A stretch of 64,000 nucleotides of DNA. It comes from Bacteriovoracia bacterium (GTDB taxonomy: Bacteria > Bdellovibrionota > UBA1018 > JBFWNL01). The translations under genes and the position numbers were made by a program. Shown one piece after another: positions 446 through 40,981 of this stretch. The notes beneath the pieces are model-generated. The model was not told the DNA's origin. It did not search any database and saw only the letters and a program-made list of their open reading frames with translations. Numbering within the stretch: position 1 is the first letter of the stretch; every line of letters starts with the position of its first letter. The DNA is taken from positions 96,001-160,000 of the forward strand of contig JBFWNL010000008.1 of NCBI GenBank assembly GCA_050251055.1, given 5' to 3'.

Positions 446-808
446 AGGGATTGGCTTCCGCTCTCAGCGCTAAACGCGCTTCGGCTGCAGCCCGGCCTCA
501 GGGCGGGCCCGCAAGCGGGCACCCCCGCCCTTCCGGCTTTCACCGCTCGGCCATCGTGGCCTCACTATCCCTATAGCAAGGTACGAAACGCTACGCGTTT
601 CGGCATTATAAACCCACCATTTCTCAGCCACCGCCCGAGAACTTCTCGTCCAACATTCTCTTATAAAAAGACACAAGCCTCAGAGGGGGCATCCGCGGGC
701 CACGAAGGCGCTGAGCGGTTGAGCCCATGGATGGGCGTCCCCATCTGAGGCTTGTGTCTTTTTATAAGAGAATGTTGGCTGGGAAATTGTGGTGCGGTGG
801 CTGAGAAA
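446..808 (-). mobile_element. tRNA-Val 3'-associated structured fold-back element (putatively non-autonomous)
   Basis: 613-634 is the exact reverse complement of 794-815; 567-577 is that of 817-827; 446-453 directly repeats 822-829; 454-540 aligns ungapped with 38193-38279. The repeats are seen directly; mobility is inference. Confidence 0.65.
650..778. repeat. Perfect 35-bp inverted repeat enclosing a 59-nt GC-rich spacer
   Basis: CCAACATTCTCTTATAAAAAGACACAAGCCTCAGA (650-684) and its exact reverse complement (744-778). Confidence 0.95.
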
Positions 809-883
809 TGGTGGGAGCTATAGGGATTGAACCTATGACCTTGACCGTGTAAAGATCCTGCTCTACCGCTGAGCTAAGCTCCC
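809..883 (-). tRNA. tRNA-Val(TAC)
   Basis: Minus strand GGGAGCTTAGCTCAGCGGTAGAGC...TT TAC AC...GGTTCAATCCCTATAGCTCCCACCA; cloverleaf with encoded CCA. Confidence 0.93.
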
Positions 884-8100: not shown

Positions 8101-9309
8101 GAACAGGTTCTCGAACAGGAGCTTGGAGGCTTCGATGGTCGGCGGATCGCCCGGGCGGAGGCGCTTGTAGATTTCGATCAGCGCTTCGTCGGGGTTGCCC
8201 ACCTTATCGTTCACCAAGGTGTCGCGCACGAACGAGCCGTGCGTGAGGTTGTCGGTGAAGATGAGCTTCAGCTCGGTGATACCCTTGCTGATGATCGTGT
8301 TCAGGCGATCTTCCGAGATCTCGTCGCTGGCCTCGGCTAGGACTTCCCCGGTGCTCTCGTCGACGATATCCTCGGCGGCGATGCGGCCGACCACGGACTC
8401 GTGCGGAACTTCCATCTTCTTGATGCCGGCGTCTTCGATCTTCTTGATGACCGCGCGGGTGAACTTGCGGTTCTTCTTGACGATCAACTCGCCCGACTTC
8501 GGATCGACGATATCTTCCTCGGCGCGCTGGCCGGAGAGGATCTCGAGGTCGACTAACTTGAAGTAGCGGTTCTTCTTCGGGCCGCCCTTCGTGTCCACCT
8601 GGATGGTTTCCACGTCGTAGAAGTAATCGAGGATCTCACTGGGAGCCATGCCCATCGCGCGCAGGATGATCGTGGCCGGAAGCTTGCGCTTGCGGTCGAT
8701 ACGGGCGTGCACGATGTCCTTATGATCGAATTCGAAATCGAGCCAAGAACCGCGATGCGGGATGACGCGAGCCGAATAAAGGATCTTGCCGCTGGAGTGG
8801 GTCTTCCCCTGATCGTGGGTGAAAATAACCCCAGGCGAGCGGTGCAACTGGCTGACGATCACGCGCTCCGTGCCATTAATAATGAAGGAAGCGCTTTCGG
8901 TCATGAGCGGAATTTCGCCCATGTAGACTTCCTGCTCTTTAATGTCGCGAATGTTGCGCGTGCCGGCTTCCTCATCCACATCGTACACCACGAGACGGAC
9001 CGTGATCTTCAGCGGAGCGGCGAAAGTCATTCCGCGCTGGCGGCACTCCAAGACGTCGTACTTGGGTTCTTCCAGCGTGTAGCTTTCGAATTCGAGCGAA
9101 GCCGTGCGGTCAAAGTCCTCGATCGGGAAAACGGACTTGAAGACACCCTGCAATCCAGTGTCGGTCCGTTTGTCCGGCGAAGTCTTCGCCTGCAAAAAGC
9201 GGTCGTACGAACTCTTCTGCAGCTCGATCAGGTTCGGGATCGCGAGCGGAGACGCGATATCCGAAAAATCTCTGCGAATTCTGCGGTTTTCCGAAATGAC
9301 GGAAGCCAT
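5155..9309 (-). CDS. rpoB: RNA polymerase beta subunit
   Basis: [33 protein letters not shown] and [18 protein letters not shown] motifs. Confidence 0.99.
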
Positions 9310-9453
9310 GCCTACTCCTCAGGTTTTAGGAAGCATAAATAGGAGAAACCCGCCTCGGCCAAAGGCCGAACCAGGTTAAATCCTATAAAGGTACACGTGC
9401 GCCCAGGGCGCAATTTTGATTAGCGATGGATCGAAGGCAAAGAGAAGGTCGAA

Positions 9454-9837
9454 TCACTTAAGTTCGACCTTGGCTCCTGCGGCTTCGAGCGTCTTCTTCA
9501 TCGTTTCAGCGTCGGCCTTGGCCACGCCTTCCTTCACGACTTTCGGAGCGCCTTCCACGAGGTCCTTGGCTTCCTTCAAGCCCAGGCCAGTGATGGTGCG
9601 GATTTCCTTGATGACGTTAATCTTGTTAGCGCCACCGTCGGTCAGCATGACCGTGAATTCCGTCTTCGCTTCCGCAGCCGGAGCGGCTCCGCCAGCAGCG
9701 GCGCCCGCGACGGCGACCGGAGCGGCAGCGGACACGCCGAACTTGGATTCCAAGTCCTTCACGAGCTGCGAGAGTTCGAGAACCGACATGTTCTCGATAA
9801 AGGAAACGACGTCTTCCTTAGAAATTGCAGTTGCCAT
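9454..9837 (-). CDS. rplL: 50S ribosomal protein L7/L12
   Basis: FGVSAAAP hinge, [20 protein letters not shown]. Confidence 0.99.
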
Positions 9838-9959
9838 GAGTCAAACCTCTTCTTAGATGCACAGCCTTCGTAGCTTTGGCGACGTCAAAGAATAATCAGT
9901 CACCGATTGTTCATCCCCGGTCGTCCTAACCGAAGATCATTAGATCAAAACCTAAACCT

Positions 9960-10490
9960 TTAACCCTGCTTCTTCTTCTCGAGCGCCACAAGGACGTTGA
10001 GCAAGCTACGCGGTACGGCGGCGAGCACGCACGCGAAGTTGGTGATCGGGGCATTCATCGTGCCCAGCATCTTGGCCAAAAGAACTTCACGGGACGGAAG
10101 GTTGGCGAGCTCTTGCACCTGGGCGACCGGAACGCGCTTACGCTCCATCCAGCTGTCTTTCAGGTTGAAAGCTTCGTTGTCCTTCGCGAAATCATTGATG
10201 ACCTTCGCCGCCGCGGCCGGATCACCGAAAGCGAACGCGACCAGGGTCGGGCCCACCATCGAATCGAGCAGGGCGACGGTTTCCGCACCGAGCGCGTCGC
10301 CTTTAACGGCTTGGCGTGCGATGTTGTTCTTCAGCACCTGGACCTTGGCGTTCTTCTCGCGCAGCTTCTTGCGCAGATCGTCCGCCTGGGTAGCCTTCAA
10401 GCCTTTGTAATCGGCGAAGATGGCGACCTTGGATTTTTCCAGGTTGGTCTTAAAATTTTTGGCCCATTCGGCTTTTTCAGTAGAATTCAT
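9960..10490 (-). CDS. rplJ: 50S ribosomal protein L10
   Basis: DYKGL, VLKN and LPSREVLLAKM motifs; lies between rplA and rplL. Confidence 0.97.
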   Translation of the reverse strand: MNSTEKAEWAKNFKTNLEKSKVAIFADYKGLKATQADDLRKKLREKNAKVQVLKNNIARQAVKGDALGAETVALLDSMVGPTLVAFAFGDPAAAAKVINDFAKDNEAFNLKDSWMERKRVPVAQVQELANLPSREVLLAKMLGTMNAPITNFACVLAAVPRSLLNVLVALEKKKQG

Positions 10491-10501
10491 CTTTTAATCC
10501 C

Positions 10502-11236
10502 TCACGCCACCGTGAATGCGCCATCGGTGGTATCCACCTGAACGCCGGGGCTCATGGTGGTGCTCAAAGTGATCCGTTGCAGGTAAACGCCTTTGCTCGT
10601 CGGCGGCTTCGCGCGCACGATGACTTGCGCCAGGGCGCCGAAGTTGTCGCGCAGCTTGCTCGCGCCGAAGGACTTCTTGCCGATCGCCACGTGAATCAGG
10701 CCGGTCTTGTCCGTGCGGTATTCCACTTTACCTTTTTTCTGGTCTTCCACGGCGCGCGTGACGTCCATGGTGACGGTGCCGAGCTTCGGGTTCGGCATGA
10801 GGCCCTTGGGACCCAGGATCTTACCGACTTTGGAGACGGCCACCATTTGGTCCGGCGTCGCGATCAACTTGTCGAACTCGAGCCAGCCGCCCAAGATTTT
10901 TTCGATGAGGTCATCGCCGCCCACGACGTCGGCGCCAGCCTTCTCGGCTTCCTTGGCCTTGTCGCCCTTGGCGATCACGGCCACGCGGGCCGACTTACCC
11001 ACGCCGTGCGGGAGCACGACCGCGCCGCGGATCATTTGTTCCGCGTGCTTGGGGTCAACGCCCAGCTTGAAGCAAACTTCGACGGTTTCGTCGAATTTCG
11101 CATAAGCTACTTTTTCCAGTAATCCGAAGGCCTGCTCAACGCCGTAGCGCTTGCCGACTTCGAGGAGAGCAGCGGCGTTCGAATACTTCTTGCCGCGGCC
11201 AGGGATGCTTCCCTTTTTCTTTTCTGCATTTGCCAT
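10502..11236 (-). CDS. rplA: 50S ribosomal protein L1
   Basis: [28 protein letters not shown]. Confidence 0.99.
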
Positions 11237-11247
11237 TCAACACCTCT

Positions 11248-11298
11248 GTGGTTCATGCGTCAGTCGGTCACGCGTTTCGGCGGCCGCCCAACTCCCAC
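11248..11298 (-). promoter_or_regulatory. Candidate L1-binding autoregulatory RNA site
   Basis: Minus strand GTGG-GAG...GAA-CCAC stem with purine-rich internal loop just before the rplA RBS, resembling known L1 operator sites. Confidence 0.45.
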
Positions 11299-11313
11299 GG
11301 TTTAGTTAAACTT

Positions 11314-11739
11314 TTAAAGCTCCGACTCGATGCCCGCGCTGCGAGCACTGCCCGCGATCGTGCGCATCGCCGCTTCGATCGAGCCCGCGTTCAAATCGGG
11401 CATCTTGACCTTAGCGATGTCTTCCAGCTGCTTTTTCGTAACTTTTCCGACCTTCTTCTTGTTCGGTTCGCCGCTACCCTTTTCAATTTTGAGCGCTTTG
11501 AACAGAAGCACCGCCGCCGGCGGCGTCTTCGTGTAGAACGTGAAGGAACGATCCGAATAAACGGTGATGATCACCGGGATCACGGTCCCCTTATGTTCCT
11601 GCGTCTTGGCGTTGAACGCCTTGCAGAACTCCATAATATTGATCCCGCGCTGACCGAGCGCCGGACCGACTGGAGGCGCGGGGTTAGCCATACCGCCAGG
11701 GATCTGTAATTTTACTTGACCAACTACTTTCTTAGCCAT
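11314..11739 (-). CDS. rplK: 50S ribosomal protein L11
   Basis: [26 protein letters not shown]. Confidence 0.99.
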
Positions 11740-11764
11740 GAACCGCCCTTAGTAGCACAACGGA

Positions 11765-12466
11765 TTAAACTTTTTCAACCTGAATAAAATCAAGCTCGAT
11801 CGGGGTTGAGCGCCCGAAAATGCTGACCACCACTTTGACTTTGCCCTTATCTAGATTGACCTCTTCGATAATGCCACTGAAATTTGAGAACGGGCCGTCG
11901 ACCACGCGCACGCTCTCGCCTTCCTGAAAGGAGATCCGAGGGCGGGGTTTGACCTGCCCTTCGGCAATCCGGTTGGTCATTTTCTGAACTTCCGACTCAG
12001 GTACTGGCACGGGCTTTACCTTGTCGCCCACGAAACCCGTAATACGGGGGGTTTCCTTCACGACGTGCCAGGTTTCGTTGTTCAGGATCATCTTCACCAG
12101 GATGTAGCCTGGGAAGAAGCGACGTTTAGTCGTCTTCTTCTGGCCCTTGACCAGCTCGATGACGTTTTCTTCCGGAACGATCACTTCTTCGAAAAACTGC
12201 TGAACTTTCAGGGATTTGATCCGGTCCTCGAGGGCCAGTTTCGCCTTATTCTCAAAACCAGAATAGGTGTGGACCACATACCAGCACATCTGGGAATCGG
12301 CCGCGGGGGTAGCGAGGTTTTCGCTGATCCGTGCCGCGCGGGTGGCGGCGGGTTTTTCGACCGCCAGCGATCCCATCGCATCTTCGCGAGAAGGTTCGGG
12401 GGTGGCCCCGGTTTCCTGATTTTCCTCGGAAGCTACGGGGTTTTCGCCTTCTTGATTCTCTACCAC
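11765..12466 (-). CDS. nusG: Transcription factor NusG with an acidic N-terminal extension
   Basis: WYVVHTYSG, FFPGYILV, KOW domain (DGPF...IFGRSTPIEL); GTG start with AAGGAG RBS. Confidence 0.97.
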   Translation of the reverse strand: MVENQEGENPVASEENQETGATPEPSREDAMGSLAVEKPAATRAARISENLATPAADSQMCWYVVHTYSGFENKAKLALEDRIKSLKVQQFFEEVIVPEENVIELVKGQKKTTKRRFFPGYILVKMILNNETWHVVKETPRITGFVGDKVKPVPVPESEVQKMTNRIAEGQVKPRPRISFQEGESVRVVDGPFSNFSGIIEEVNLDKGKVKVVVSIFGRSTPIELDFIQVEKV

Positions 12467-12475
12467 AACTACTCC

Positions 12476-12871
12476 TTATCCAATCCAGTTCTTGAGCTGG
12501 AACGAGCTCTTCACGATCCACGTCCAGAGGCTGTCCAATCCGCCTAAGATAACGCCCGAGATGATGACCATTATAATGACCACAACGGTCGCGCGGGAAG
12601 TATCGTTACTCGTAGGCCAGGTCACGCGGCTCAGCTCCTCCACCACTTCGTTCATGAACTGGTTAGCTTTATCGTTCGCGTACAAGATGAAAAAACAGAG
12701 GGCAGTGACCCCGACCCCCACTCCACGCAAGATGAGGTCGATGTTCTGCATCCGCGCTTCGAGGTCGTAGGTGCCGGCCACCATGGTGGCGAGCTGGAAC
12801 ACGACGTAGCCCAGCAGCGCCGCCGCCGTGAGGAAACTACCGTTGACCCATCGTTGCCTTTGATTTTCCAT
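12476..12871 (-). CDS. secE: Preprotein translocase SecE (three-TM form)
   Basis: ELSRVTWP motif before the last TM helix; lies between tRNA-Trp and nusG. Confidence 0.93.
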   Translation of the reverse strand: MENQRQRWVNGSFLTAAALLGYVVFQLATMVAGTYDLEARMQNIDLILRGVGVGVTALCFFILYANDKANQFMNEVVEELSRVTWPTSNDTSRATVVVIIMVIISGVILGGLDSLWTWIVKSSFQLKNWIG

Positions 12872-12884
12872 AAATCCTCTTTAG

Positions 12885-12961
12885 TGGCAGGCCAGGAGGG
12901 ATTCGAACCCACAACCTACGGATTTGGAATCCGCCGCTCTAGCCATTCGAGCTACTGGCCT
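12885..12961 (-). tRNA. tRNA-Trp(CCA)
   Basis: AGGCCAGTAGCTC...GCGGA TT CCA AA TCCGT...GGTTCGAATCC...CTGGCCTGCCA. Confidence 0.95.
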
Positions 12962-12969
12962 ACTCGCTA

Positions 12970-13119
12970 CTACTTACCTTCACGATGCATCGTGTGCTTA
13001 CGGCAGAATTTGCAGAACTTCTTGAACTGCAGCTTATCGGTCGTCTTCTGCTTGTTCTTCGTCGTCTGATAATTCTTCTGCTTACACTCGGTGCAATCTA
13101 AACCTACTCCGACTCGCAT
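12970..13119 (-). CDS. rpmG: 50S ribosomal protein L33, Zn-binding form (absent from the ORF track)
   Basis: Manual translation [49 protein letters not shown] (49 aa), two CxxC motifs. Confidence 0.95.
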
Positions 13120-13230
13120 ACTTCACTTCCTTCTAATGTACTTTCAGGTGCTCGCTAAAATCGACATCCTGTCGTTTTTGGGTCCACTGGACCCACGCTG
13201 CACTCCAGAAAAATTTGCTCCTGCAAATTT

Positions 13231-14421
13231 TTACTCGATGATCTCGGACACGACGCCGGCGCCGACGGTCTTGCCGCCTTCGCGAATGGCGAAGCGCAGT
13301 TCCTTCTCCATCGCCACTGGCGTAATGAGATCCACCGTGATCGCGATGTTATCGCCCGGCATCACCATCTCCACGTTCGGCGGCAACTCCACGATGCCCG
13401 TCACGTCCGTCGTGCGGAAGAAGAACTGAGGACGGTAACCCTTGAAGAATGGAGTGTGGCGTCCGCCTTCTTCCTTCTTCAAGATATAAACCGAGCCCTT
13501 GAACTTCTTGTGCGGCTTCACCGATCCCGGCTTCGCCAACACTTGTCCGCGCTCGACTTCTTCCTTCTTCGTGCCGCGGAGCAAAGCGCCCAGGTTGTCC
13601 CCGGCTTCGCCGTAATCAAGCAACTTGCGGAACATTTCGATGCCCGTCACCGTCGTCTTCGTCGTCGGACGCAGACCGATGATTTCCACTTCCTCGCCCA
13701 CCTTAATCGTTCCGCGTTCCACGCGGCCCGTGACCACCGTACCGCGGCCCGAGATGGAGAACACGTCTTCCACCGGCATCAAAAACGGCTTGTCCTTATC
13801 GCGCTGAGGCTGGGGAACGTAAGCGTCCACCGATTCCATCAGCTGCACGATCGCCTTTTCGCCCAGGTCGCCCTGGTCGCCAGCCAGACCCTTCGTCGCC
13901 GAACCCTTGATGATCGGGATCTTGTCGCCCGGGAATTCGTACTTCGAGAGAAGCTCGCGAACTTCCATCTCCACCAGGTCCAAAAGCTCCTTGTCGTCGA
14001 CCATGTCGCACTTGTTGAGGAATACAACAATGGCCGGAACACCGACCTGGCGGGCGAGCAGGATGTGCTCGCGCGTCTGCGGCATCGGACCGTCAGCGGC
14101 CGAAACCACCAAGATCGCGCCGTCCATTTGGGCGGCGCCCGTGATCATGTTCTTCACGTAGTCGGCGTGCCCAGGGCAGTCGACGTGCGCGTAGTGGCGC
14201 TTGTCCGTTTCGTATTCCACGTGCGAGGTGTTGATCGTGATCCCGCGCTCTTTTTCTTCCGGCGCGTTGTCGATCTGGTCGTACGCACGTGCCTGCGCGT
14301 AACCCTTCTTCGCCAGCACCGTCGTGATCGCCGCCGTCAACGTCGTCTTGCCGTGGTCGACGTGACCGATCGTCCCGATGTTGCAGTGGGGTTTCTTTCT
14401 ATCAAATTTCTCTTTTGCCAT
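13231..14421 (-). CDS. tuf: Elongation factor Tu
   Basis: [13 protein letters not shown] and NKCD GTPase motifs; 396 aa. Confidence 0.99.
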
Positions 14422-14488
14422 TCTTCGTTCTCCTAAAAAACTTTACTGGGTGAGACGCCCGGAACATCCGAACGCCTCACCGAAATCA

Positions 14489-14564
14489 TGGAGCTCCCGA
14501 CGGGACTTGAACCCGTGACCTCACCCTTACCAAGGGTGTGCTCTACCAACTGAGCTACAGGAGC
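14489..14564 (-). tRNA. tRNA-Thr(GGT)
   Basis: GCTCCTGTAGCTCAG...CACCC TT GGT AA GGGTG...GGGAGCTCCA. Confidence 0.95.
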
Positions 14565-14595
14565 ACCTAGTTCAACACCTTTTCAGACGTTGAAC

Positions 14596-14672
14596 TGGAG
14601 CGGGAGACGGGACTCGAACCCGCGACCCTCAGCTTGGAAGGCTGATGCTCTAGCCAACTGAGCTACTCCCGC
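14596..14672 (-). tRNA. tRNA-Gly(TCC)
   Basis: GCGGGAGTAGCTCAG...TCAGC CT TCC AA GCTGA...CTCCCGCTCCA. Confidence 0.95.
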
Positions 14673-14735
14673 AAACTGCTCTCACTCCACAAATCCGAAA
14701 ACCAAAACTTTCACGGCACGCTCCACGCAAAAGTG

Positions 14736-14821
14736 TGGTGGAGAGGGAAGGGTTCGAACCTTCGAAGGCGTGAGCCGCCAGATTTACAGTCTGGTCCCTT
14801 TGACCGCTCGGGAACCTCTCC
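14736..14821 (-). tRNA. tRNA-Tyr(GTA)
   Basis: GGAGAGGTTCCCGAGCGG...CCAGA CT GTA AA TCTGG; long variable arm; CCA end. Confidence 0.95.
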
Positions 14822-14850
14822 GTCTCACAAACATTTTGCGCAACAATAAG

Positions 14851-14926
14851 TGGAGCTGGAGAAGGGACTTGAACCCATAACCTGCTGATTACAAATCAGC
14901 TGCTCTACCAATTGAGCTACTCCAGC
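14851..14926 (-). tRNA. tRNA-Thr(TGT)
   Basis: GCTGGAGTAGCTCAA...GCTGA TT TGT AA TCAGC...CTCCAGCTCCA. Confidence 0.95.
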
Positions 14927-15098
14927 AACCGAAATTTCTGGATAGACAAGCCCACCAGCGTCGTACCGAATTGCGCAATTTTGCCGTTGCCGGCAAATTT
15001 CCATCCTTTAGTGGAAAAGTCAATGAGTTTGAGGGCTTTCCGGGGGAAAAGCGGCTTGAAAACTCCGGCTGAACTCCCTCGGAAAAGTGGAATTAACC

Positions 15099-15114
15099 GG
15101 GAATCTAGGTTGCT
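15099..15114 (+). promoter_or_regulatory. Candidate sigma-54 promoter
   Basis: GG-N10-GC spacing with TTGCT (GGGAATCTAGGTTGCT) about 25 nt before the OMP gene. Confidence 0.35.
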
Positions 15115-15137
15115 TATAGCAAATACTCGCGCTAGCG

Positions 15138-15698
15138 ATGAGAAATATGAAAAAACAACTTACAGTATTTACAGTTCTTTTTGGTTTAACCGCCGCCGTT
15201 TTCGCCTCCGGAAACGCCCTCGCCGCTGAGAAAAAGGGGTCCTCGACCACCTCTTCGATGGAGTCCTTCCGCAGCAGCAGCAGCGCCCCCTGGGGACTAG
15301 GTCTCACGACTACCTTAAACGGCATGTCCGGCATCAGCGGCTGGATCCCGTTTGGTGAAGGGATGCAAGGCCTGCAGCTGGGTTTCGGCATCCAGACCAC
15401 GTCTCCTTTCACTTTTGCTCTGGGCGCGGCTTATAAGTCCACCCTGGCCGGAACTCGTCAAACAGGCTTCCACATCGGCGGCGGTATCGCCCTCGGCACC
15501 GGCGGAAACGGACTGGGCGGCACGCAATTCAATATCGGCATTTCCGGCATCTTGGGCGTTCACTACTCCCCGGTGGAAGCGTTCCAAATGAGCTTCGACG
15601 CCGGTCCCACCGTCACCATCGCCGGCGGTTCGGCTAGCTTCGGAATGGGCGCCCTGTCCACCCTGGCTGGCTTCACCGTGATGTATATGTTCTATTAA
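15138..15698 (+). CDS. Small outer-membrane beta-barrel protein
   Basis: Signal peptide (start possibly 15147), alternating Gly/hydrophobic strands, aromatic C-terminus (VMYMFY). Confidence 0.7.
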   Translation: MRNMKKQLTVFTVLFGLTAAVFASGNALAAEKKGSSTTSSMESFRSSSSAPWGLGLTTTLNGMSGISGWIPFGEGMQGLQLGFGIQTTSPFTFALGAAYKSTLAGTRQTGFHIGGGIALGTGGNGLGGTQFNIGISGILGVHYSPVEAFQMSFDAGPTVTIAGGSASFGMGALSTLAGFTVMYMFY

Positions 15699-15730
15699 CT
15701 TCAAACTCTTTAAATAAATATTAACAATCA

Positions 15731-15772
15731 AGGCCCTTGGTATTTTAAGTATTTAAAATCCAAGGGCTTTTT
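15731..15772 (+). terminator. Intrinsic terminator
   Basis: GCCCTTGG...CCAAGGGC stem followed by TTTTT. Confidence 0.7.
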
Positions 15773-15857
15773 CATATCTTCCGTTCCTTGAAGTCTTCAA
15801 GGCCCTTTGACATAATTAAACCATAACAGTCGGTCTTTGAACTTTTAAGGAGTCTCT

Positions 15858-16499
15858 ATGAAACGCGGTACGTTTGTGGTGAGAGCTTCTCTCTTATTTA
15901 TTATGGCCCTCTCGAGCATGTCCTGCTTGAAGGGAGCGAACACGACCCGGGCGGCGACCCTGGCGAACATGATCGCGCGCAATTCGGCGGCGGATGACGG
16001 TGGCGATAAGCCAGCCGATCCGATCGTAGAAGAAGATAAATCCCTCGTGGCCTCCCTTGAAGAAGAGGAAGAAGAAAAAGCAGTCGAGCTGGCGTCGGAA
16101 GCCTGGGAAGACACCGCGGGCTGCGAAGCTACGGGAAAAAATCAAAGCGTCCTGATGGCGATGAATTTCGCCAGCGACGGCAGCATGGAGTTAGTGTCGA
16201 ATGCATATAGCGACGAAGTTTGCGGCGCGATCGCCAAACAGGTGACCGCCACGGGTACGTGGGGCGTCGTGAAAGAAGACGATAGCCTGCGCACGATCAA
16301 GCTGGATACGGGCGAAGCGGCCCTTTATCAAGTCGTGGCGGATAAGTTCGGCGACTTCACCCTCGTCCTGATCAGCGGCGACGACCACGAATTGCTCTTG
16401 GGCGAATACCTGCTCACCAAGGCCGTGGACGAAGAAGACGCCATGGACGACGCCAAGGATGATGGCGGCGACGACGGCGCCCTCGAATCCAAGAAGTAA
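15858..16499 (+). CDS. Acidic hypothetical lipoprotein
   Basis: AAGGAG RBS, hydrophobic signal ending SSMSC, D/E-rich mature part. Confidence 0.65.
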   Translation: MKRGTFVVRASLLFIMALSSMSCLKGANTTRAATLANMIARNSAADDGGDKPADPIVEEDKSLVASLEEEEEEKAVELASEAWEDTAGCEATGKNQSVLMAMNFASDGSMELVSNAYSDEVCGAIAKQVTATGTWGVVKEDDSLRTIKLDTGEAALYQVVADKFGDFTLVLISGDDHELLLGEYLLTKAVDEEDAMDDAKDDGGDDGALESKK

Positions 16500-16596
16500 G
16501 CGCCTCCGTTCATTACCACACCAGTTAAACGGCAGACATGATTCGCCCTGGTTTGCGCAGACGAGCGCGCGGACCGGGGCGAAATCATTTTTCCCA

Positions 16597-17202
16597 TCAC
16601 AAATGAATCGCGTAGCCACCGGTGAACTGCCACTCGGCCTGATGCAGGCTCGGAAAGCTGCGGAACACCACCGTGACGCCGAAGTCGGCGGAATTCTTCT
16701 CGGCCACGCGCAAGGAAGTACCTAACCCGAAGTAAGGATCGATCTGCGTCGGGCTGTACGAAGTGGAAACGCTGGTGCCGACGGTCGTGACGGTCTTTAC
16801 CTTGCTGATCTGCCCGCCGCCGCGCAGGCTCGCGGAGAACACACTGCCCATCTGATAAGTGCCTTTGAGCCCCAGCTTGATCTTTTCCGCGGTGTCGCTG
16901 ACGGTTTCGCCGCTCGCGGGAAACGTTTCGGTACCCGCGCCATGGGTGTACTCAAGCTCGAGCGAAAGGAAGCTGTAAGTGGCCGCCGCGTTCACCCCGT
17001 ACGTGAGGCGATTGTAGGTGTGCGGGGTCGGGGTATCCTTGTACACGCGGTCATAGCCGATGATGGGCTTGACCGTGTACTGGACGCCGCCGAACTCGGC
17101 GGCGGACGCGAACGGCCCGGTCGCCGCCAGAAAACCGACGGCGCCAAGACCTCCGAACGCGATTAAACGGCGAAGAATGCGCATACTTCGCTTTTCGGTC
17201 AT
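16597..17202 (-). CDS. Outer-membrane beta-barrel protein
   Basis: Signal peptide, amphipathic strands, C-terminal WQFTGGYAIHL. Confidence 0.7.
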   Translation of the reverse strand: MTEKRSMRILRRLIAFGGLGAVGFLAATGPFASAAEFGGVQYTVKPIIGYDRVYKDTPTPHTYNRLTYGVNAAATYSFLSLELEYTHGAGTETFPASGETVSDTAEKIKLGLKGTYQMGSVFSASLRGGGQISKVKTVTTVGTSVSTSYSPTQIDPYFGLGTSLRVAEKNSADFGVTVVFRSFPSLHQAEWQFTGGYAIHL

Positions 17203-17981
17203 GGCGGGGCGAACCTTGAAATGAGGATGCCCGCGGCGACCGAGACGTTGAGCGAGGTCACCTCACCCGCATCGGCCGAAGCGGGCGGGATGGCGCAGAT
17301 CTCGTCGCAGTTTTTCTCGACCTGCTTGCGCATGCCGCTCTCTTCGTTGCCGAGCACAAGCAGCCACGCGCGGTCGCGCGCCACCTGATCGTAGCGAGCC
17401 TTGGCGTGCTCGCTAGTGCCCAGGATCCAAAGGCCCGCCTCCTTCGCTTTCTCCAGGCAGCGGTTCAGATTCGTTTCAATACAAAAGGGGACGTTTTCCA
17501 CGCCACCGCAGGCGGTGTCGTACACTACCGGGCCTAACGTCGCCGCGCGGTCGCGGGTCATCATGATGCCCTTCACGCCGAAGAACGCGGCCGTGCGGAA
17601 GATCGCGCCGACGTTGTGCGGATCAAGTAACCCGTCGAAGGCAAGCCAAAGGCCCTGATTCGGGTCCACATTGGCGAGTAGCTCTTCGAGCGCGACGGGT
17701 TCGCGGTCTTTCACGAGCGCTTCGGAGAGTGCGGTGCGGCCGTCTTTGGCGCCGGCTCCGCCGCCGCGCTGGTCTCGCGGGTCCCGACGTCCGCCCGCAT
17801 TCTGCCCTGCCGGTCCACCGGAAACCGTGCGCACGTTCACACGCTTCTGCTGTGCCAGTTCGCGCACCTGCTGCCAGGCTTCGCTCACGCCCGCGGCCGG
17901 AATGCGCACTTCTACGACGTCTTGTGGGCGGGAAACGAGCGCGGCCATCACGCTATGCGGATTCTTGAGGGTCAGCGCCAT
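17199..17981 (-). CDS. SpoU/TrmH-family RNA 2'-O-methyltransferase (RlmB-like)
   Basis: DPHNVGAIFRTA, LVLGNEESG, SLNVSVAAGI. Confidence 0.9.
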   Translation of the reverse strand: MALTLKNPHSVMAALVSRPQDVVEVRIPAAGVSEAWQQVRELAQQKRVNVRTVSGGPAGQNAGGRRDPRDQRGGGAGAKDGRTALSEALVKDREPVALEELLANVDPNQGLWLAFDGLLDPHNVGAIFRTAAFFGVKGIMMTRDRAATLGPVVYDTACGGVENVPFCIETNLNRCLEKAKEAGLWILGTSEHAKARYDQVARDRAWLLVLGNEESGMRKQVEKNCDEICAIPPASADAGEVTSLNVSVAAGILISRFAPP

Positions 17982-18718
17982 CAGCCGCTCAGCTCTTTCA
18001 AAATCGCTTCGGTCGCCGCGCGCGGATCCGCGGCCTGCGTGATGGGCCGACCCACCACGATCGCGCCGGCCCCAAGCTGCGCGGCTTGCTTCGGCGTCAT
18101 CGTACGCCCTTGGTCTTGGGCCGCGGTACCGGCGGGGCGGATGCCCGGCACGACGGTGTAGAGGCCGGCGAACTCTTCCCGCAAGGCTTCGAGCTCATGC
18201 GAGGAACAGACGATCCCGTCCACTCCCCAGGCCTTCGCCTGCCGGACCATGTTCTTCACCGACTCGCCGATCACATAAGGCTTCGCCGAAACGGTGGACA
18301 TCGCCTGCGACCAGCGATCTTCATCGAAAGACGTCAGCACGGTCACCCCTAGAATTTTCGGACGCGCCGCCGAGCGCGCGCCGTCAGCCGGAGCAAGCTC
18401 ACGTACGGTGGCCTGGACCATTTCGGGACCGCCCGCGACGTGCAGGGTGAACATCTCGGCGCCCATGCGCGCGACCTGCGCGGCGGACTTGGCTACCGTG
18501 TTCGGAATGTCGTGGAACTTCAGGTCAACGAAAACGCGCTGACGAAGCGAGACGAGCTTGCGTACGAGCTCCGAGCCGCCGGACTGGAATAGCTCGAGCC
18601 CGACCTTGTAAACGACGGGCAGCCCCTTGAGCTTTTCGACCAGGGCAAATGCCTCGGCGGCCGTGGCGAAATCCAGCGCCACAATCAACTCGGTCTGCGT
18701 GGCGTTCTTTTCGGACAT
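17981..18718 (-). CDS. pyrF: Orotidine-5'-phosphate decarboxylase
   Basis: LIVALD, KVG, DLKFHDIPNT, VPGIR, VVGRPI. Start moved to MSEK at 18718, after the proS stop and an RBS. Confidence 0.97.
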   Translation of the reverse strand: MSEKNATQTELIVALDFATAAEAFALVEKLKGLPVVYKVGLELFQSGGSELVRKLVSLRQRVFVDLKFHDIPNTVAKSAAQVARMGAEMFTLHVAGGPEMVQATVRELAPADGARSAARPKILGVTVLTSFDEDRWSQAMSTVSAKPYVIGESVKNMVRQAKAWGVDGIVCSSHELEALREEFAGLYTVVPGIRPAGTAAQDQGRTMTPKQAAQLGAGAIVVGRPITQAADPRAATEAILKELSG

Positions 18719-18729
18719 GCGGCCCCCTC

Positions 18730-20205
18730 TTAGTAAGACTTCGCGAAAATGGTCCGTACGCAGTTCGTGGTCTTGCCCGTGAAGATGCACGGCTCTTTTT
18801 CCACGATCGGCTTATGGTTTTCATCCAGCATAATGCAGCGAACGGTGGCCTTGGTCTCTTCCTTCACCTTGGCTTCGGCCGCGGCGTCCTGCGACCAGGA
18901 GCAGATGAGGAATCCGCCCGGGGTTTCGATCTTTTCCTTGAACTCCGCATAAGAGCCCACGCGGAAGGTGTTCTCGTCGCGGAACTTCCGCGCCCGCTCT
19001 AAAAGATCTTTCTGCATCGCGCCCAGTTCACGCGCGACGGTGGAGGCCAGCTCGCCCAGCGGGATGAAGTTCTTCACGCCCAGATCCCGGCGGGTCATCA
19101 CGACCTGGTTCTTCTCTAAATCACGCGGACCCACTTCAATGCGCACGGGCACGCCGACCAATTCGTACTCGAAGAACTTCCAGCCCGGCTTTTTGGTTTC
19201 GTCTTTATCCACTTCCACCATCACGTCGTACGGAAGGCCGGCCGACTTGCCCGCGGCGCGGATTTCGGCGGCGAGCTTGTCCGCCACCTCGTACACTCTC
19301 CCTTTGGCCGATTCATCGCCGCCGTAAATCGGCACGATCACCGCGTGCAGAGGCGCGAGCCGAGGCGGCACGACGAAGCCCTTGTCGTCGGAGTGGGTCA
19401 TGATCACGCCGCCCACGAGGCGCGTGGACACGCCCCAGCTGGTTTGGTGCACGTGCTTTTGCTTGCTGTCGCTGTCCAAGAACTGCGTATCGAACGCCTT
19501 GGCGAAATTGCTCGCTAAATTATGGGACGTACCCGCCTGGAGCGCCTTCTTGTCCTGCATCATGGCCTCGATACAGTACGTGCGCAGGGCGCCCGCGAAC
19601 TTCTCCGCCTCGGACTTAAGGCCTGGAATCACGGGAATGGCGAGCACATTCTCGGCGAACTCGGTGTAAACCTTCAGCATCTGAATCGTCATCGCCTCGG
19701 CTTCTTCCGCCGTCGCGTGGCAAGTGTGGCCTTCCTGCCAAAGGAATTCGGTGGTGCGCAAAAAGAGGCGCGTGCGCATTTCCCAACGCACGACGTTCGC
19801 CCACTGGTTTATCAGCAGAGGCAGATCGCGATACGACTGGATCCACTTGGCGAACATGCTGTTAATGATGGTTTCGGAAGTGGGACGCACGACGAGTTTT
19901 TCTTCGAGTGCCTTGCCGCCGGCAATACCCACGACCGCGAGCTGGGGCGCGAAACCTTCGACGTGCTCGGCCTCTTTCTTCAGAAAGCTCTCCGGGATGA
20001 ACATCGGGAAATAGGCGTTCTTCACGCCGCACGCCTTGATCCGGGCATCTAGCTCGCGCTGGATGCGCTCCCACACCGCGTACCCATTGGGGCGAATGAC
20101 CATGCACCCCTTCACGGGGCTATAGTCGGCCAGCTTCGCCTGGATGACGATATCCTGGTACCACTCGGAAAAGTCCTTACTACGCGGGGTGATTTTTTCG
20201 GCCAT
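18730..20205 (-). CDS. proS: Prolyl-tRNA synthetase, archaeal/eukaryote-like type (no editing insertion)
   Basis: [28 protein letters not shown]-terminal FAKSY. Confidence 0.97.
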
Positions 20206-36712: not shown

Positions 36713-37894
36713 CTAGACGCGCTTTAGCTTTAACAACGTGATTTCCGAGGGAACTCCCGTACGGACCGGGGGGCCCCAGTAGCCCGTACCGGGGTTCACG
36801 TAGAGCCACATCTTGTCTTTATGCTTGTAGAGCCCCTGCAGGTACGGGTGGAAATGCTTGATGATTTGATTGAGCGGAAAGAACTGCCCCGCGTGCGTAT
36901 GCCCCGAAATCTGCAGATCAAAGCCCGCGTTAAAAGCCTCGTAACAGCTCCGTGGCTGGTGCGCGAGTAGGAGCTTGAACGCATCCCGGGGGGCGTCGCC
37001 CATCGCCGCAACGGGGTCGCTCGTGTGCACGCTGATCATTTGCTGGGCGGAAAAATCCCGCACGCCCGCGACGACGAGCTTCGCCTTTCCCACGTCGATC
37101 ACGCGATGCTCGTTATCGAGCACGTCGTAGCCCAGGCGCCGGAGTTCGGCTGACCACTCCAACACGCCCGAAAAATATTCGTGGTTTCCGCTGCAGAAAA
37201 ACTTGCCGTAACGCCCCTCGAGTTCACCAAAAGGGGCGACATCATGCGATAGCTGAACCACCGGACCGTCCACCAGATCGCCGGTGAGCGCCACGAGGTC
37301 GGGCTCCGCCTCTTGCGCGATATCGACGATTCGCTCGACAAAACCGCGATCAATCGTGGGTCCCACGTGCACGTCGCTGATCTGCACGATCCGAAAGCCG
37401 TCGAGGTCAGGATGCAAGCCAAAGACCGGCACGTCGACCTCCACGAGGTTCGGCCGCTTCACCGCCTCGCGCACTCCCCAAGCCGTGCCCAAGCCCGCCG
37501 CCGCAAGAATCCCCGCGCGGCTTGAACGCAATAGAAACGCGCGCCGGGTGGGATCGAGCGTCTGCTTGCGCACGCGCAAGGCAAAATATCCTAGCCAGCC
37601 CACGAGGTCCGTCACCAGCAGATAAATCAGAACCGCCGCCATGAATCCCATGATGATGTAGGTGCCCCATTGCAGGACCATCAGGATGGGATTGCGAATG
37701 GGCAGCACGCCCGTGCGCAAAAGCGCCGGCCCCGCGATCAAGCCCGCAAAGGCCGTCACGATTACCGCCGTCGCCAGCTTCGCCCACCACCCCCGCCAAC
37801 CCAGGGAGCGAACCATCCGCCGATGGAGGTAGAAACCCATCCCCACCCCAAAGAGCGAAATAATTGAAATAAAAAGGATAAACCGGGTATTCAC
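36713..37894 (-). CDS. Membrane-anchored metallophosphoesterase (YkuE-like)
   Basis: N-terminal TMs; SDVH, GDLVD, GNHE, GHTH.GQ motifs. Confidence 0.92.
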   Translation of the reverse strand: MNTRFILFISIISLFGVGMGFYLHRRMVRSLGWRGWWAKLATAVIVTAFAGLIAGPALLRTGVLPIRNPILMVLQWGTYIIMGFMAAVLIYLLVTDLVGWLGYFALRVRKQTLDPTRRAFLLRSSRAGILAAAGLGTAWGVREAVKRPNLVEVDVPVFGLHPDLDGFRIVQISDVHVGPTIDRGFVERIVDIAQEAEPDLVALTGDLVDGPVVQLSHDVAPFGELEGRYGKFFCSGNHEYFSGVLEWSAELRRLGYDVLDNEHRVIDVGKAKLVVAGVRDFSAQQMISVHTSDPVAAMGDAPRDAFKLLLAHQPRSCYEAFNAGFDLQISGHTHAGQFFPLNQIIKHFHPYLQGLYKHKDKMWLYVNPGTGYWGPPVRTGVPSEITLLKLKRV

Positions 37895-37967
37895 CCCCGT
37901 TTTATACCCCTGAGAGCCCTTGCACTGCCAGGGGTTTTCCGGTAATCATGGGGCTTCGTTAAAAGGT

Positions 37968-38045
37968 GGACCCGTAGCTCAGTTGGATTAGAGCGCCACA
38001 CTACGGATGTGGAGGTCATAGGTTCGAACCCTGTCGGGTCCGCCA
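37968..38045 (+). tRNA. tRNA-Arg(ACG)
   Basis: GGACCCGTAGCTCAG...CCACA CT ACG GA TGTGG...GGTTCGAACCCTGTCGGGTCCGCCA. Confidence 0.95.
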
Positions 38046-38444
38046 TTTCTAAAGTTCCTGTCTTCATTCAAATTCTACAAATAAGTAACTAAGCCCCTGA
38101 GACATCACTACGCGTGCGTAAGCGCACTTTAGAAATGGCGGAGAATACAAAAGGCAAAACGCGAAGCGTTTTGTACCTTACGACAGGGTTCGAAAGGCGG
38201 AAGCCGCCGGGTGCCCGCTTGCGGGCGGCGGCTGAGCCCGGCCTGCAGCCGAAGCGCGAGGAGCGCTGAGAGCGGAAGGCGAACCCTGTCGGGTCCGCCA
38301 TTTCTAAAGTTCCTGTCTTCATTCAAATTCTACAAATAAGTAACTAAGCCCCTGAGACATCACTACGCGTGCGTAAGCGCACTTTAGAAATGGCGGAGAA
38401 TACAAAAGGCAAAACGCGAAGCGTTTTGTACCTTACGACAGGGT
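38025..38444 (+). repeat. Perfect 165-bp direct repeat starting inside tRNA-Arg (period 255 bp)
   Basis: 38025-38189 equals 38280-38444. The copies are separated by a 90-nt GC-rich structured segment. Confidence 0.95.
38046..38444 (+). mobile_element. tRNA-Arg 3'-associated structured fold-back element (same family as 446-808)
   Basis: 38126-38142 is the reverse complement of 38039-38055; 38181-38194 is that of 38023-38036; core 38193-38279 is homologous to 454-540. Mobility is inference. Confidence 0.65.
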
Positions 38445-38470
38445 CGATAAATTGGCAGGTGAGCCAAACA

Positions 38471-40981
38471 TTACCGGGTCCTCACCAAGCGCAGGCCCTG
38501 GATGCCACCTTGGTGGCACTCAGGCACTAACGCTCCCCGGCTAGCTGACCTCAGGTCACGAGCAACGCTAAGCCAACTTCCCCCGCGGTACACACGTTCT
38601 TTGCCGGAGGAAGGCCCCAGAGGGTTGTGGGTGGTGCCCGCGAGCTGCGTATCGCTCAACCCATAGTTCACGTCGTAAAAATCTTGCACCCACTGGTGTA
38701 CGTTTCCATGCATATCTATCAGTCCAAAGCCATTCCTTTTTCCACGATGTAATTCGACCTCATGGGTAATCCGTCCAGAGTTTTCAGAAAACCAAGCGAC
38801 CTCTTTGAGCTTCGTATAAGCGTCGTCATCCTCACCAAAAAAAAAGCTCCCTGGATTCCCTCCACGTGCGGCCCATTCCCATTCCGCTTCAGTGGGCAAA
38901 CGGTATGTAAAGCCATCGTTCGATTTTTTATTGAGATTTCGAATGAATGCCTGGGCCCCATCCCAAGAAACACTGTCAACTGGGTTGTTAGGGCAGATCT
39001 TAAGAACGGGATCAAAAGTATCTGGGCAAAAAGCTTCACCATCGTGGATCGCTCGCACCGTCTCTAATAATCCCGTCCCCCTCATCACACTGTACCATTG
39101 TCGCTGAGTAACGGGGGTAACGCCCATTTCGAAACCATCAACCCTCACCCAGTGCCTCTTTTCGTTTCGATACCGACCGGGCTCCGAATCCGGACTTCCC
39201 ATTTGAAAGGTCCCACCTGGAATCGGAACAAATTCCAGGTCGAGATCGCTTGGCATTTCACGTTGAATCATATCTACTATTTTTCGATAAACATCCGAAA
39301 AAAAGGCTCGGGGGACCGCGTGCGCGTTGACTCTTGACACAAAAGCCTGAAGCTCTGGATAAATGCTCGCTATTTGAATCAAATCTGGAAGGCTAATTCC
39401 AAACTCTGCGGCCGCACGCTTGAGATCCACATCGTTTTCAAAACGATCCGTCAAATAGCGAATGGGCTCAGGATCACCGGAACCCGTACGCTTCACGCCC
39501 GCGTTTTTCATCGCCTCAATAAAACGACGCGAGTCCTCGGTAAACGCGGCCTGGAGCGCGTCATTTCCACGGTAGGTCGAAAAAATCTCGTCCAAGTCCT
39601 CCTGTCTAAAGAGGCTAGTGTTTTTGTCCACATACGCCCGCACTTGATCCGAGCGCCTCTGGATACCTTGGTTGTGGCAGGAGATACAAGAAATCCCGTT
39701 CACAATGACGGCATTCCTCCGCGAAGCATCCTGAACAATCGGAGTCGGAGCTTCATCTATGCGTTGATGGTCCGAAGTCACAAGCATGTAGGCTTGAAGA
39801 CCATTGGGGAGATTCCAGATAATTTCGCCTCCGGCATGCTTAAACTGTCCGGCACCGTCGCCGGGCCCAAGCGGTCGCGAGAACAAATCCGACGCGCCGG
39901 TACTTTCTTTAAAGTCGTAAGACTTCCAATACGCGCCATCTCTGATCTTATGGCGCTCGATCATGCGATTATTTTGCGAAACACCCGAGTCTGTGAAGGC
40001 CGCCCGTAGGACGCGCCTCGATTTGATATCTCTGTCGACATCGATCCCAACCAAATCACGTTCAAGCGCCGTATCCGTATCGGGGATATTTAAGAACTGA
40101 TAATAAAGAGGCGGCCTGGCTGCGGCAAATGCAAACCAATCACCCCTCGTGTAGAAAAGTCCGGTTCCAGTTTGAATTTGAATAAAGCTGACAGCGGAAT
40201 CAAAAGCGTAACCGTAACTCAAATAAGGACTGCTGCCCGCTACCCGATCCCAGACTTGCGCACTCCATCCCAACGCGCCAATATCCACGCGGTAGACCAG
40301 GCGATTGGCATCAATAGCCTGAAGTGGGAAAAGGCTTTCTTGGGAGCTTAGTGAGTTAACCAGCTTTGTGAGAGCATCCCTAAATATATCAAGATCATCA
40401 GCTGAATCACCGGCCGCCGGCAGGTGGGCAAGCGACAGGTAACGAATGTCCCTGCGTTTACGTTCCGGCAACCGCTCTAAGTCCCTTGCGATGGCCCCGA
40501 AAAGATAAGAATAAGACGCCGTACCTGCGTCTTGCAGCACCCGTCCCTTTTCTTCTCCCGCCGTCGACGGGGCACCCGCCTTGATCCAAGCCAAAACGGT
40601 GTCCTTTTCTTTTTGGGTAAGTTTTCGGATTCCGGTCGCCGCAAGCTCATCTTTCGAGAGCTGTCGGACTTTTGGCATTTCATCGCTTTCGATGCGCTGA
40701 TAAAGCGAGGATTGGGCAGGGTCACTTAGATTGATGAAATCTGGGTTGCTCCTAAGTTTTTCAAAATCCAAAACAGAATCGAATCCGCCACGCACTTTTT
40801 TTCCCGGCTCTCCGTGACAGTAAAAACAATTGGCCTTAAAAATCGATTGAACCGAGCGCGCGAGCCTTTCCGCATCGGCATCTTGCGGTAATAGATTGGA
40901 TGCCCACGTCGGCACCGCGACAACGGACACAGAAACGGTCAAAGCAAAAAAGGTAAACGCGGAAAATAGCTTGGAGCGCAT
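38471..40981 (-). CDS. Secreted protein with two c-type heme motifs and a C-terminal FGE-sulfatase/C-type-lectin-fold domain
   Basis: Signal peptide; CFYCH (planctomycete cytochrome c-like) and CISCH; FQMGS, RLPTEAEWE, DMHGNV.QW, RGGSW. Confidence 0.85.
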   Translation of the reverse strand: MRSKLFSAFTFFALTVSVSVVAVPTWASNLLPQDADAERLARSVQSIFKANCFYCHGEPGKKVRGGFDSVLDFEKLRSNPDFINLSDPAQSSLYQRIESDEMPKVRQLSKDELAATGIRKLTQKEKDTVLAWIKAGAPSTAGEEKGRVLQDAGTASYSYLFGAIARDLERLPERKRRDIRYLSLAHLPAAGDSADDLDIFRDALTKLVNSLSSQESLFPLQAIDANRLVYRVDIGALGWSAQVWDRVAGSSPYLSYGYAFDSAVSFIQIQTGTGLFYTRGDWFAFAAARPPLYYQFLNIPDTDTALERDLVGIDVDRDIKSRRVLRAAFTDSGVSQNNRMIERHKIRDGAYWKSYDFKESTGASDLFSRPLGPGDGAGQFKHAGGEIIWNLPNGLQAYMLVTSDHQRIDEAPTPIVQDASRRNAVIVNGISCISCHNQGIQRRSDQVRAYVDKNTSLFRQEDLDEIFSTYRGNDALQAAFTEDSRRFIEAMKNAGVKRTGSGDPEPIRYLTDRFENDVDLKRAAAEFGISLPDLIQIASIYPELQAFVSRVNAHAVPRAFFSDVYRKIVDMIQREMPSDLDLEFVPIPGGTFQMGSPDSEPGRYRNEKRHWVRVDGFEMGVTPVTQRQWYSVMRGTGLLETVRAIHDGEAFCPDTFDPVLKICPNNPVDSVSWDGAQAFIRNLNKKSNDGFTYRLPTEAEWEWAARGGNPGSFFFGEDDDAYTKLKEVAWFSENSGRITHEVELHRGKRNGFGLIDMHGNVHQWVQDFYDVNYGLSDTQLAGTTHNPLGPSSGKERVYRGGSWLSVARDLRSASRGALVPECHQGGIQGLRLVRTR

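Follow-up and report, generated by a model that had tools for sequence, protein, structure and literature searches.

The 64,000-nt stretch of DNA analysed here (the window; positions 96,001 to 160,000 of contig JBFWNL010000008.1, forward strand, from the Bacteriovoracia bacterium assembly GCA_050251055.1, the genome designated G000 below) carries a tRNA-Arg(ACG) gene at 37968..38045 on the plus strand, identified by ARAGORN and by the Rfam tRNA model (63.9 bits), and behind it an array of sense and antisense copies of the 3' end of the same gene. An earlier note on this sequence had taken the array for a local amplification of tRNA fragments. We propose instead that it is a member of a widespread family, and that it probably consists of a complete copy and a 3'-truncated tandem copy of a non-coding, non-autonomous integrative element of about 255 bp, inserted in the T-loop of tRNA-Arg(ACG).

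Organization of the tRNA-Arg(ACG) locus

All parts of the array lie on the plus strand. The last 21 nt of the tRNA gene, C56 to A76 (38025-38045), form the first member of a direct repeat and are followed by a trailer or spacer (38046..38125), which would be borne by the insert as judged from the sequence, the inverted repeat and the circular fold described below, and at the end of which a small hairpin, GTGCG-TAAG-CGCAC, is located (38114-38127). The first antisense segment, referred to as seg1 (38126..38142), consists of 17 nt antisense to tRNA positions 70-76 and to the first 10 nt of its own trailer, and is 100% complementary to both 38039-38055 and 38294-38310; the arms of the inverted repeat 38039-38055/38126-38142 are separated by 70 nt. 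After seg1 come a conserved hairpin, hp (38155..38173; CAAAACGCGAAGCGTTTTG), with an 8-bp stem and a GAA loop, and a conserved tail, TACCTTA (38174-38180), and then the second antisense segment, seg2 (38181..38194), of which all 14 nt are complementary to tRNA positions 54-67 (T-loop, 3' strand of the T-stem, C66 and G67) at 38023-38036. G68 and G69 of the tRNA target, between the stretches matched by seg1 and seg2, are left unpaired. The core (38195..38279), a GC-rich fold of about 85 nt with CUUG and GNRA-type loops, was defined using RNAalifold, the covariance model R1 and pair counts. Behind the core stands a second tRNA 3' part, again C56 to A76 (38280..38300), which is 21/21 identical to that of the tRNA and would be the displaced 3' end of the gene; seg2 is also complementary to it over 12 nt (38280-38291).

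The array then continues with a second unit without core (38301..38444), 100% identical to 38046-38189, in which seg1 lies at 38381-38397, hp at 38410-38428 and the first 9 nt of seg2 at 38436-38444. As a result, a 165-nt sequence is directly repeated (38025-38189 = 38280-38444) with 100% identity and a start-to-start distance of 255, and both pairs of inverted arms recur in the second copy. The tRNA gene with its sense and antisense repeats, the two hairpins and the mismatch-free repetition of the 165-bp unit had all been located correctly in the earlier note, as repeat analysis and ARAGORN agree, and its proposed homology to the tRNA-Val locus is borne out by pairwise alignment and by a match to the covariance model; its start of the array, 38023, is the position at which the inverted arm begins, whereas the direct repeat begins at 38025. 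The antisense arms can indeed pair with the tRNA 3' part, as it had suggested, the complementarity being 100% over 17 nt and 14 nt. With up to 3 mismatches allowed, the window contains 4 occurrences of the seg1 17-mer, where 0.17 would be expected by chance; 0/100 shuffles reached 4.

A search for a decayed core 3' of the truncated copy gave a local alignment score of 14 against a shuffle mean of 15.8, and none was found; likewise, no sigma-70 promoter was found in 37800-38700 and no plus-strand terminator between tRNA-Arg and the unit. At both the Arg and the Val loci, the tRNA model was the sole Rfam model at or above its gathering score. On the minus strand, hp together with the A-rich run before it resembles an intrinsic terminator (38155-38173, 38410-38428).

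The DNA of the window is present in landfill metagenome runs. Run X1, which may be the source sample, yielded a 150-nt contig spanning 38160-38309, and run X2 of the same study a single 285-nt contig spanning 38160-38444; the junction between the core and the second copy is covered by contigs from two runs, in favour of the two-copy layout over an assembly duplication. The 165-nt stretch, assembled in X1 as a contig of its own, has a depth of 41.1; the core stands at 15.9 and the flanks at 13.4-17.7, as would be expected if the 165-nt part were present twice and the core once, and the depth ratio of core to flank is about 1:1 in both X1 and X2. A full unit followed by a core-less distal copy was found at four other loci: tRNA-Gln of the same genome, L014, L018 and tRNA-Tyr of L125. 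The arms are identical at L018, where the break lies in the hairpin loop, and diverged at tRNA-Gln, L014 (about 90% alike by eye) and tRNA-Tyr of L125; at L046 the second unit continues into the core as far as the contig end. Because the same layout recurs at these four loci, the core-less tandem looks like a recurrent end-state rather than running amplification. Of the earlier suggestion of recent or ongoing amplification, the first half stands, since perfect identity argues for a recent event, and the second is not favoured; we read the Arg locus as a recent tandem insertion of which the distal copy has lost its core.

A conserved fold with compensating base changes

The covariance model R1 was built from an alignment of 8 units, for which RNAalifold predicted 42 pairs, 18 of them with compensating changes. 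Among 55 copies aligned to the model, 92.3% of the cells were paired, both sides changed in 39/42 pairs, and G-U was counted in 61 cells against A-C in 26, all on an alignment fitted to the model, by which the pairing and G-U counts are inflated. The margin of covariation is nevertheless large: the covariation score was 0.505, compared with 0.046-0.082 when the partners were slid by 1-3 columns, and 0/500 shuffles reached the observed values. G-U is in excess over A-C, and therefore the tRNA-sense strand should be the folding strand.

Helix 1 of the model is hp, in which both sides change in 9/9 pairs and 92.9% of the cells are paired. Helix 2, termed P1, is formed by seg2 and the sense tRNA piece behind the core, with changes on both sides in 6/6 pairs, and seg2 pairs with the local tRNA at no fewer than 12/14 positions in 28/39 copies. 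The antisense pieces are the 5' strands of P1 (seg2) and of a further helix, P0 (seg1), of which the 3' strands are tRNA-derived sequence and, for P0, also the element's own trailer; in the first unit of the Arg locus, the 3' strand of P1 is the second tRNA 3' part. The core, comprising helices 3-8, is the most conserved part of the family, with an identity of 0.85-0.93 between copies at different tRNAs; its loops include G(CUUG)C, and the four-membered loops are GNRA-type. When circularised, the 255-nt unit folds into a rod of P1 and P0 with a predicted energy of -110.1 kcal/mol, against -80.7 +/- 5.3 for 40 shuffles (z = -5.5; RNA parameters). The rod stem is a duplex copy of tRNA positions 56-76 plus trailer, and the core and the spacer make up its two ends. 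A pseudoknot between the GTACC tail and a GGGTRC bulge was considered and rejected, as no covariation was seen by eye in the alignment, without a count.

Sister units in the genome and across the phylum

The sister unit in the window lies behind tRNA-Val(UAC) (809-883) and occupies 446..883 on the minus strand, with a model match at 439-614 (143 bits). The order of its parts is the same as at the Arg locus, namely seg1 (613-634), hp (584-602), core (454-538) and a short sense piece, CAATCCCT (446-453), and it contains a long inverted repeat, seg2 being divided into 567-577 and 539-542 with an extra hairpin in between. The antisense pieces fit tRNA-Val, and the core differs from that of the Arg unit by compensating changes. 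In the whole genome, the core pattern was detected at 6 places, against 0 for the reversed control, and these are behind tRNA-His, tRNA-Asp (two units), tRNA-Val, tRNA-Arg and tRNA-Gln; profile search added tRNA-Leu(CAG) and tRNA-Ala(CGC), with partial copies behind tRNA-Leu(UAG) and tRNA-Lys(CUU), and the covariance model placed the core at 10 sites. A seg2 match (up to 2 mismatches) was found behind 7/45 tRNAs when each was compared with its own locus, against 17/1974 mismatched tRNA-locus pairs. The antisense of the last 10 nt plus 8 nt of trailer lies within 700 nt downstream of 16/45 tRNAs, a count that has no matched control. Some 5.2 kb behind the tRNA-His unit a degenerate tRNA 3' part is located.

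Beyond this genome, the covariance model matched 15/61 genomes of the same order, mostly with several copies per genome, and 21/151 genomes sampled across the phylum, three further families included, while the pattern scan gave matches in metagenome-assembled genomes of Bdellovibrionales, Bdellovibrionia, Oligoflexia and Bacteriovoracaceae. The size of the unit is uniform across the family, 230-350 bp. As many as 39/55 copies are located within 700 nt behind a same-strand tRNA or tmRNA gene, representing 21 tRNA species plus tmRNA. The clean order in relatives is the tRNA, a short trailer hairpin, hp, seg2, the core, a second copy from C56 to the 3' end and a different trailer. C56 is the exact point from which the second copy matches the tRNA, and the match extends to the gene end; of the 39 copies with an upstream tRNA or tmRNA, 24 carry a second 3' part with at least 18/21 identical positions. 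Where the genes lack an encoded CCA, the repeat ends at position 73 (L125), and therefore the copy was made from DNA, that is, from the gene, and not from mature tRNA. In copy pairs that have diverged, the differences fall at positions 56-58, 65-66 or in the CCA, and seg2 agrees at 56-66 with the working tRNA (L014, L029, L030, L042); the trailer with which seg1 pairs is that of the element itself, as opposed to the one following the displaced copy (L012, L014, L035 and tRNA-Gln of this genome). In one relative (G019, L075) a 100% identical tRNA-Arg(ACG) is followed by a plain terminator, the neighbouring genes being different from those of the Arg locus.

Two loci in relatives may be described individually. 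At L125 (G109:C115:8600-10400), in a small genome of another family, a Gly-Tyr-Thr-Trp tRNA operon carries the unit behind three of its four tRNAs; CCA is not encoded in most of these genes, and the discriminator base is the last position of the repeated 3' part. At L030 (G024:C12) the unit stands behind the tmRNA gene, and the displaced copy is 19/21 identical to the tmRNA 3' part.

Other types of core were found in the same layout, one of them behind tRNA-Pro(GGG), tRNA-Ser and tRNA-Val(GAC) in this genome and others in relatives (L094, L079-L081). The second core type of this genome reads ...TTCACGATTTGGCC...GGCCAAATCGCACG...CCCAGGATGGGGTGAGTG, followed by the tRNA 3' part, and its sites are G000:C8:95142-95252 (close to but not within the window, some 1.3 kb past the tRNA-Val unit), G000:C6:135588-135860 and G000:C7:201575-201760; its contexts are a gene-less insert behind tRNA-Pro(GGG), a position beside a tRNA-Met-like 3' fragment behind an integrase gene, and the far end of a small tRNA-Val island. 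In addition, a conserved module of about 55 nt, GGGGGACGCCCATCCATGGGCTCGAC...CAGCGCCNTCNTGGCCCGG...CCCCC, tips long perfect hairpins behind about 10 tRNAs of this genome (for instance at 640-800 of the window, minus strand, C4:84300-84520 and C2:410870-411050), the outer arms of which include the last 7-12 nt of the tRNA. Units with only a short sense piece after the core, such as the first tRNA-Asp unit (with G000:C3:91800-92150 behind it) and that of L028 (1730-2060), are followed by a single small gene, the protein of which has a signal-peptide-like start, and this lends them a cassette-like look.

Origin of the element and comparison with known systems

A plain duplication of an attachment site, as the earlier note had argued, leaves the inverted copies unexplained; the direct repeat itself, however, is what site-specific insertion into a tRNA gene normally leaves behind. 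As a general claim, we consider the family to be non-autonomous integrative elements with a self-folding attachment module, which is quite likely when little of the mechanism is included and still probable when more of it is. On insertion, the element would swap the tRNA 3' part from C56 onwards for its own identical copy, and the original 3' part would be pushed downstream. The antisense arms, in our estimate, rather likely let the tRNA-sense strand fold back on its own tRNA-derived attachment sequence: they would serve pairing within the element and not recognition of the chromosome, because seg1 extends into its own trailer, which the target lacks, and a pairing role is also suggested because a double-stranded phage-type attachment site (attP) would need no antisense copies. 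By analogy, and more tentatively, the recombining form could be a folded single-stranded DNA circle, of which the rod presents the target in double-stranded form; a trans-acting tyrosine recombinase would exchange a single strand, leaving the insertion to be completed by replication. The duplex form would be unable to leave after insertion, which would fit the tandem, decaying copies, and the second, core-less copy would be the remnant of a tandem insertion. As an alternative to the single-stranded DNA form, it is conceivable, with slightly less confidence, that the fold acts as RNA in the read-through transcript of the tRNA gene. A wider proposal, to which we give a similarly low weight, is that of a phylum-wide, protein-less mobile family, in which the self-folding strand builds its own recombination site from the sense and antisense tRNA 3' half. 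Nucleic acid would then specify the target, and any tRNA or tmRNA could become one by re-writing; the conserved core would serve as a handle for a trans-acting enzyme or as a single-strand origin, and the system might be a tRNA-anchored counterpart of attC- or CTX-type recombination, or else a new form of guided recombination.

Several observations weigh against the proposal of an integrative element acting as folded DNA. In 15/39 copies just 7-14 nt of the tRNA part follow the core, and then unrelated DNA or a small gene; such pieces are not what a simple insert-and-duplicate picture predicts. The core-less distal copies at the five loci have their breaks between the hairpin loop and the end of seg2, for which the proposal offers no mechanism. 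The contigs from the two runs are compatible also with a single chromosomal copy plus free 255-bp circles. Loops of the CUUG and GNRA types, and a core so strongly conserved in sequence, suit RNA better than a mere DNA loop, and the pair counts carry the inflation mentioned above. Finally, site-specific integration is suggested by the repeat pattern by itself, with no recombinase tied to the element.

The unit contains no gene, and no gene-bearing parent element with the core was found among the 55 copies. It does show the feature of a cis-mobilizable element (CIME) that a repeat of the tRNA 3' part is kept at both ends with no genes inside, and one could regard the units as CIME leftovers of integrase islands after gene deletion, the conserved part being an attP arm. 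Islands and integrases adjoin several units, tandem accretion and decay at tRNA genes are well documented in section 7 of PMC5704250, and the degenerate 3' part behind the tRNA-His unit would be in line with such decay. A tyrosine integrase is encoded just upstream of five copies, according to the coordinates of the core and integrase matches, and was considered as the enzyme of the element itself at L033, L031 and L024; this candidate was dropped, as the junctions assign the integrases to other islands, which are bounded by a repeat of the last 7-14 nt of the tRNA and lodged between the tRNA and the unit. Close homologues of these integrases end beside a junction of the type '...TCCACCA plus terminator', and the layout of seg2 and 3' part was found in 0/20 of the 3' flanks behind them; nor does the presence of an integrase track the core (10/15 core-positive against 24/46 core-negative genomes). 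Moreover, a uniform unit of 230-350 bp is not expected from random deletions, and protein-binding arm sites do not covary as base pairs, so that an origin by decay appears very improbable to us. An example of such an island is found at L042 (G007:C10:49000-68900), where 6113-19320 is a 13-kb mobilizable island at the 3' end of tRNA-Pro(UGG), encoding a ThsB-like TIR protein, an MmeI-type restriction-modification enzyme, a TOTE primase-helicase, a MobA/VirD2 relaxase and a tyrosine integrase; it has repeated TGGCTGAG motifs in both arms and a 7-nt boundary repeat, CCGACCA, and sits between the tRNA and the trailer hairpin of the unit. The same arrangement of islands was found in L031, L054, L055 and L024.

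Two further explanations assign the fold to RNA, for which the CUUG and GNRA-type loops and the G-U excess speak. One is a guide RNA, with the core as a protein-binding scaffold and seg2, with or without seg1, as a programmable guide steering a recombinase in the manner of IS110 bridge RNAs. The layout, in which a variable segment of 14 nt, exchanged with precision and matching 21 tRNA species and tmRNA, adjoins a conserved scaffold, is in accord with it, as are the core identity of 0.85-0.93 between copies with different targets and the number of tyrosine-recombinase matches in the genome (8, against about 10 core-carrying tRNA genes). However, seg1 is complementary to its own trailer, which is absent from the target, and the match of seg2 has another explanation: a functional tRNA requires the tRNA part to agree with the target in any case, and seg2 has to follow for P1 to be preserved. 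In addition, no protein could be linked to the element. In G000, which is 93.5% complete, searches for an IS110-type DEDD recombinase (PF01548), TnpB, Y1 transposase and reverse transcriptase (RVT_1) gave 0 matches each, and PF01548, present in 11/61 relatives, was found in 2/15 core carriers; we therefore regard a guide RNA as improbable, if a little less so than decay. A cis-acting RNA without a role in recombination is the other explanation, in which the fold, within the tRNA read-through transcript, processes or terminates it, insulates the tRNA or masks the displaced fragment. The units stand on the same strand directly behind tRNA genes with no intervening terminator on that strand, at loci with a drifted displaced copy (L014, L029, L030, L042) seg2 agrees with the functional tRNA, and the hairpin reads as a terminator for antisense transcription, all of which would suit such an RNA. 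This explanation leaves it unexplained why the structure is built around the insertion junction and how it spread to many tRNA genes, and both the patchy distribution (15/61 and 21/151 genomes) and the relatives with identical tRNAs that do without the unit speak against it; it is thus unlikely, with better prospects than the guide RNA.

The integrative element that we prefer would combine a single conserved non-coding scaffold, found behind 21 tRNA species and tmRNA, with complementary segments that fit each target, while carrying no gene. Should the fold serve as a recombination substrate or a guide, it would provide a simple, re-writable means of aiming DNA insertion at chosen tRNA genes and would explain the spread of gene-less elements; if it is an RNA, it would represent a new, strongly covarying RNA family co-transcribed with tRNAs. 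Either way, many of the 'odd palindromes' behind Bdellovibrionota tRNA genes are accounted for.

Among known systems, the bridge RNA or seekRNA of IS110 elements is a structured non-coding RNA with variable target-complementary segments beside a conserved scaffold, and the element likewise pairs variable target-complementary segments with a conserved scaffold. It differs in that its complementary segments are much longer, that seg1 matches its own trailer, that there is no Rfam match and that, unlike in the IS110 family, no DEDD recombinase was found in G000. REPIN and miniature inverted-repeat transposable element (MITE)-type repeats are short, non-coding, hairpin-forming, multi-copy sequences mobilised in trans; the element departs from these in having arms that fit the particular tRNA and are not common to all copies, and in entering tRNA genes at a single fixed position, and neither a Y1 nor a RAYT gene was found in G000. 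The stem of the integron attC site is made of inverted core sites. As described in PMC4792948, attC is recognised by the recombination system as a folded single strand. The units resemble integron gene cassettes in being small and without integrase, some being followed by a single small gene (tRNA-Asp, L028), whereas their stems share no single consensus but vary with the tRNA, and the sequence of their central part is conserved; no integron integrase or attI site was identified, the 8 tyrosine-recombinase matches of G000 being counted without classification. The attachment site proper of the CTX phage is a forked hairpin, formed in single-stranded DNA when two target-like sites of opposite orientation, some 90 bp from each other, anneal; recombination exchanges one pair of strands and is completed by replication (PMC3089051, section 4; PMC3442271). 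In a way that recalls CTX attP(+), about 85 nt separate seg2 from the sense copy and the whole unit adopts a rod-shaped fold, and in the modelled structure P1 (12-14 bp) and P0 (17 bp) would each provide two inverted target-like copies that anneal to a hairpin. Unlike CTX, which uses dif as target and XerCD, the element has the tRNA T-loop region as target, no phage genes, and a conserved multi-helix core as spacer.

Transfer RNA genes are the classic landing sites of mobile DNA, for which the choice of target is thought to reside in each integrase protein. With the islands, integrative and mobilizable elements and CIMEs that target tRNA genes, the element supplies the new 3' part and the old one is left as a direct repeat (PMC5704250, section 7; 10.1101/2020.12.28.424599, section 3), newer insertions displace older ones from the tRNA, and tandem and decayed copies are met with, as these same sources describe, the latter for tycheposons. 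The present element is like these islands and CIMEs in its insertion signature and in its accretion and decay; it is unlike the islands in being gene-less, of a uniform 230-350 bp, with a covarying fold and antisense tRNA copies, and in that a single scaffold serves 21 tRNA species and tmRNA. No published description of it was found in the literature searched, supplementary files such as lists of tRNA-linked elements being outside the search. Relative to the systems compared, what is new here is a unit of uniform size without genes, a core that covaries, antisense arms matched to the tRNA and the breadth of targets per scaffold.

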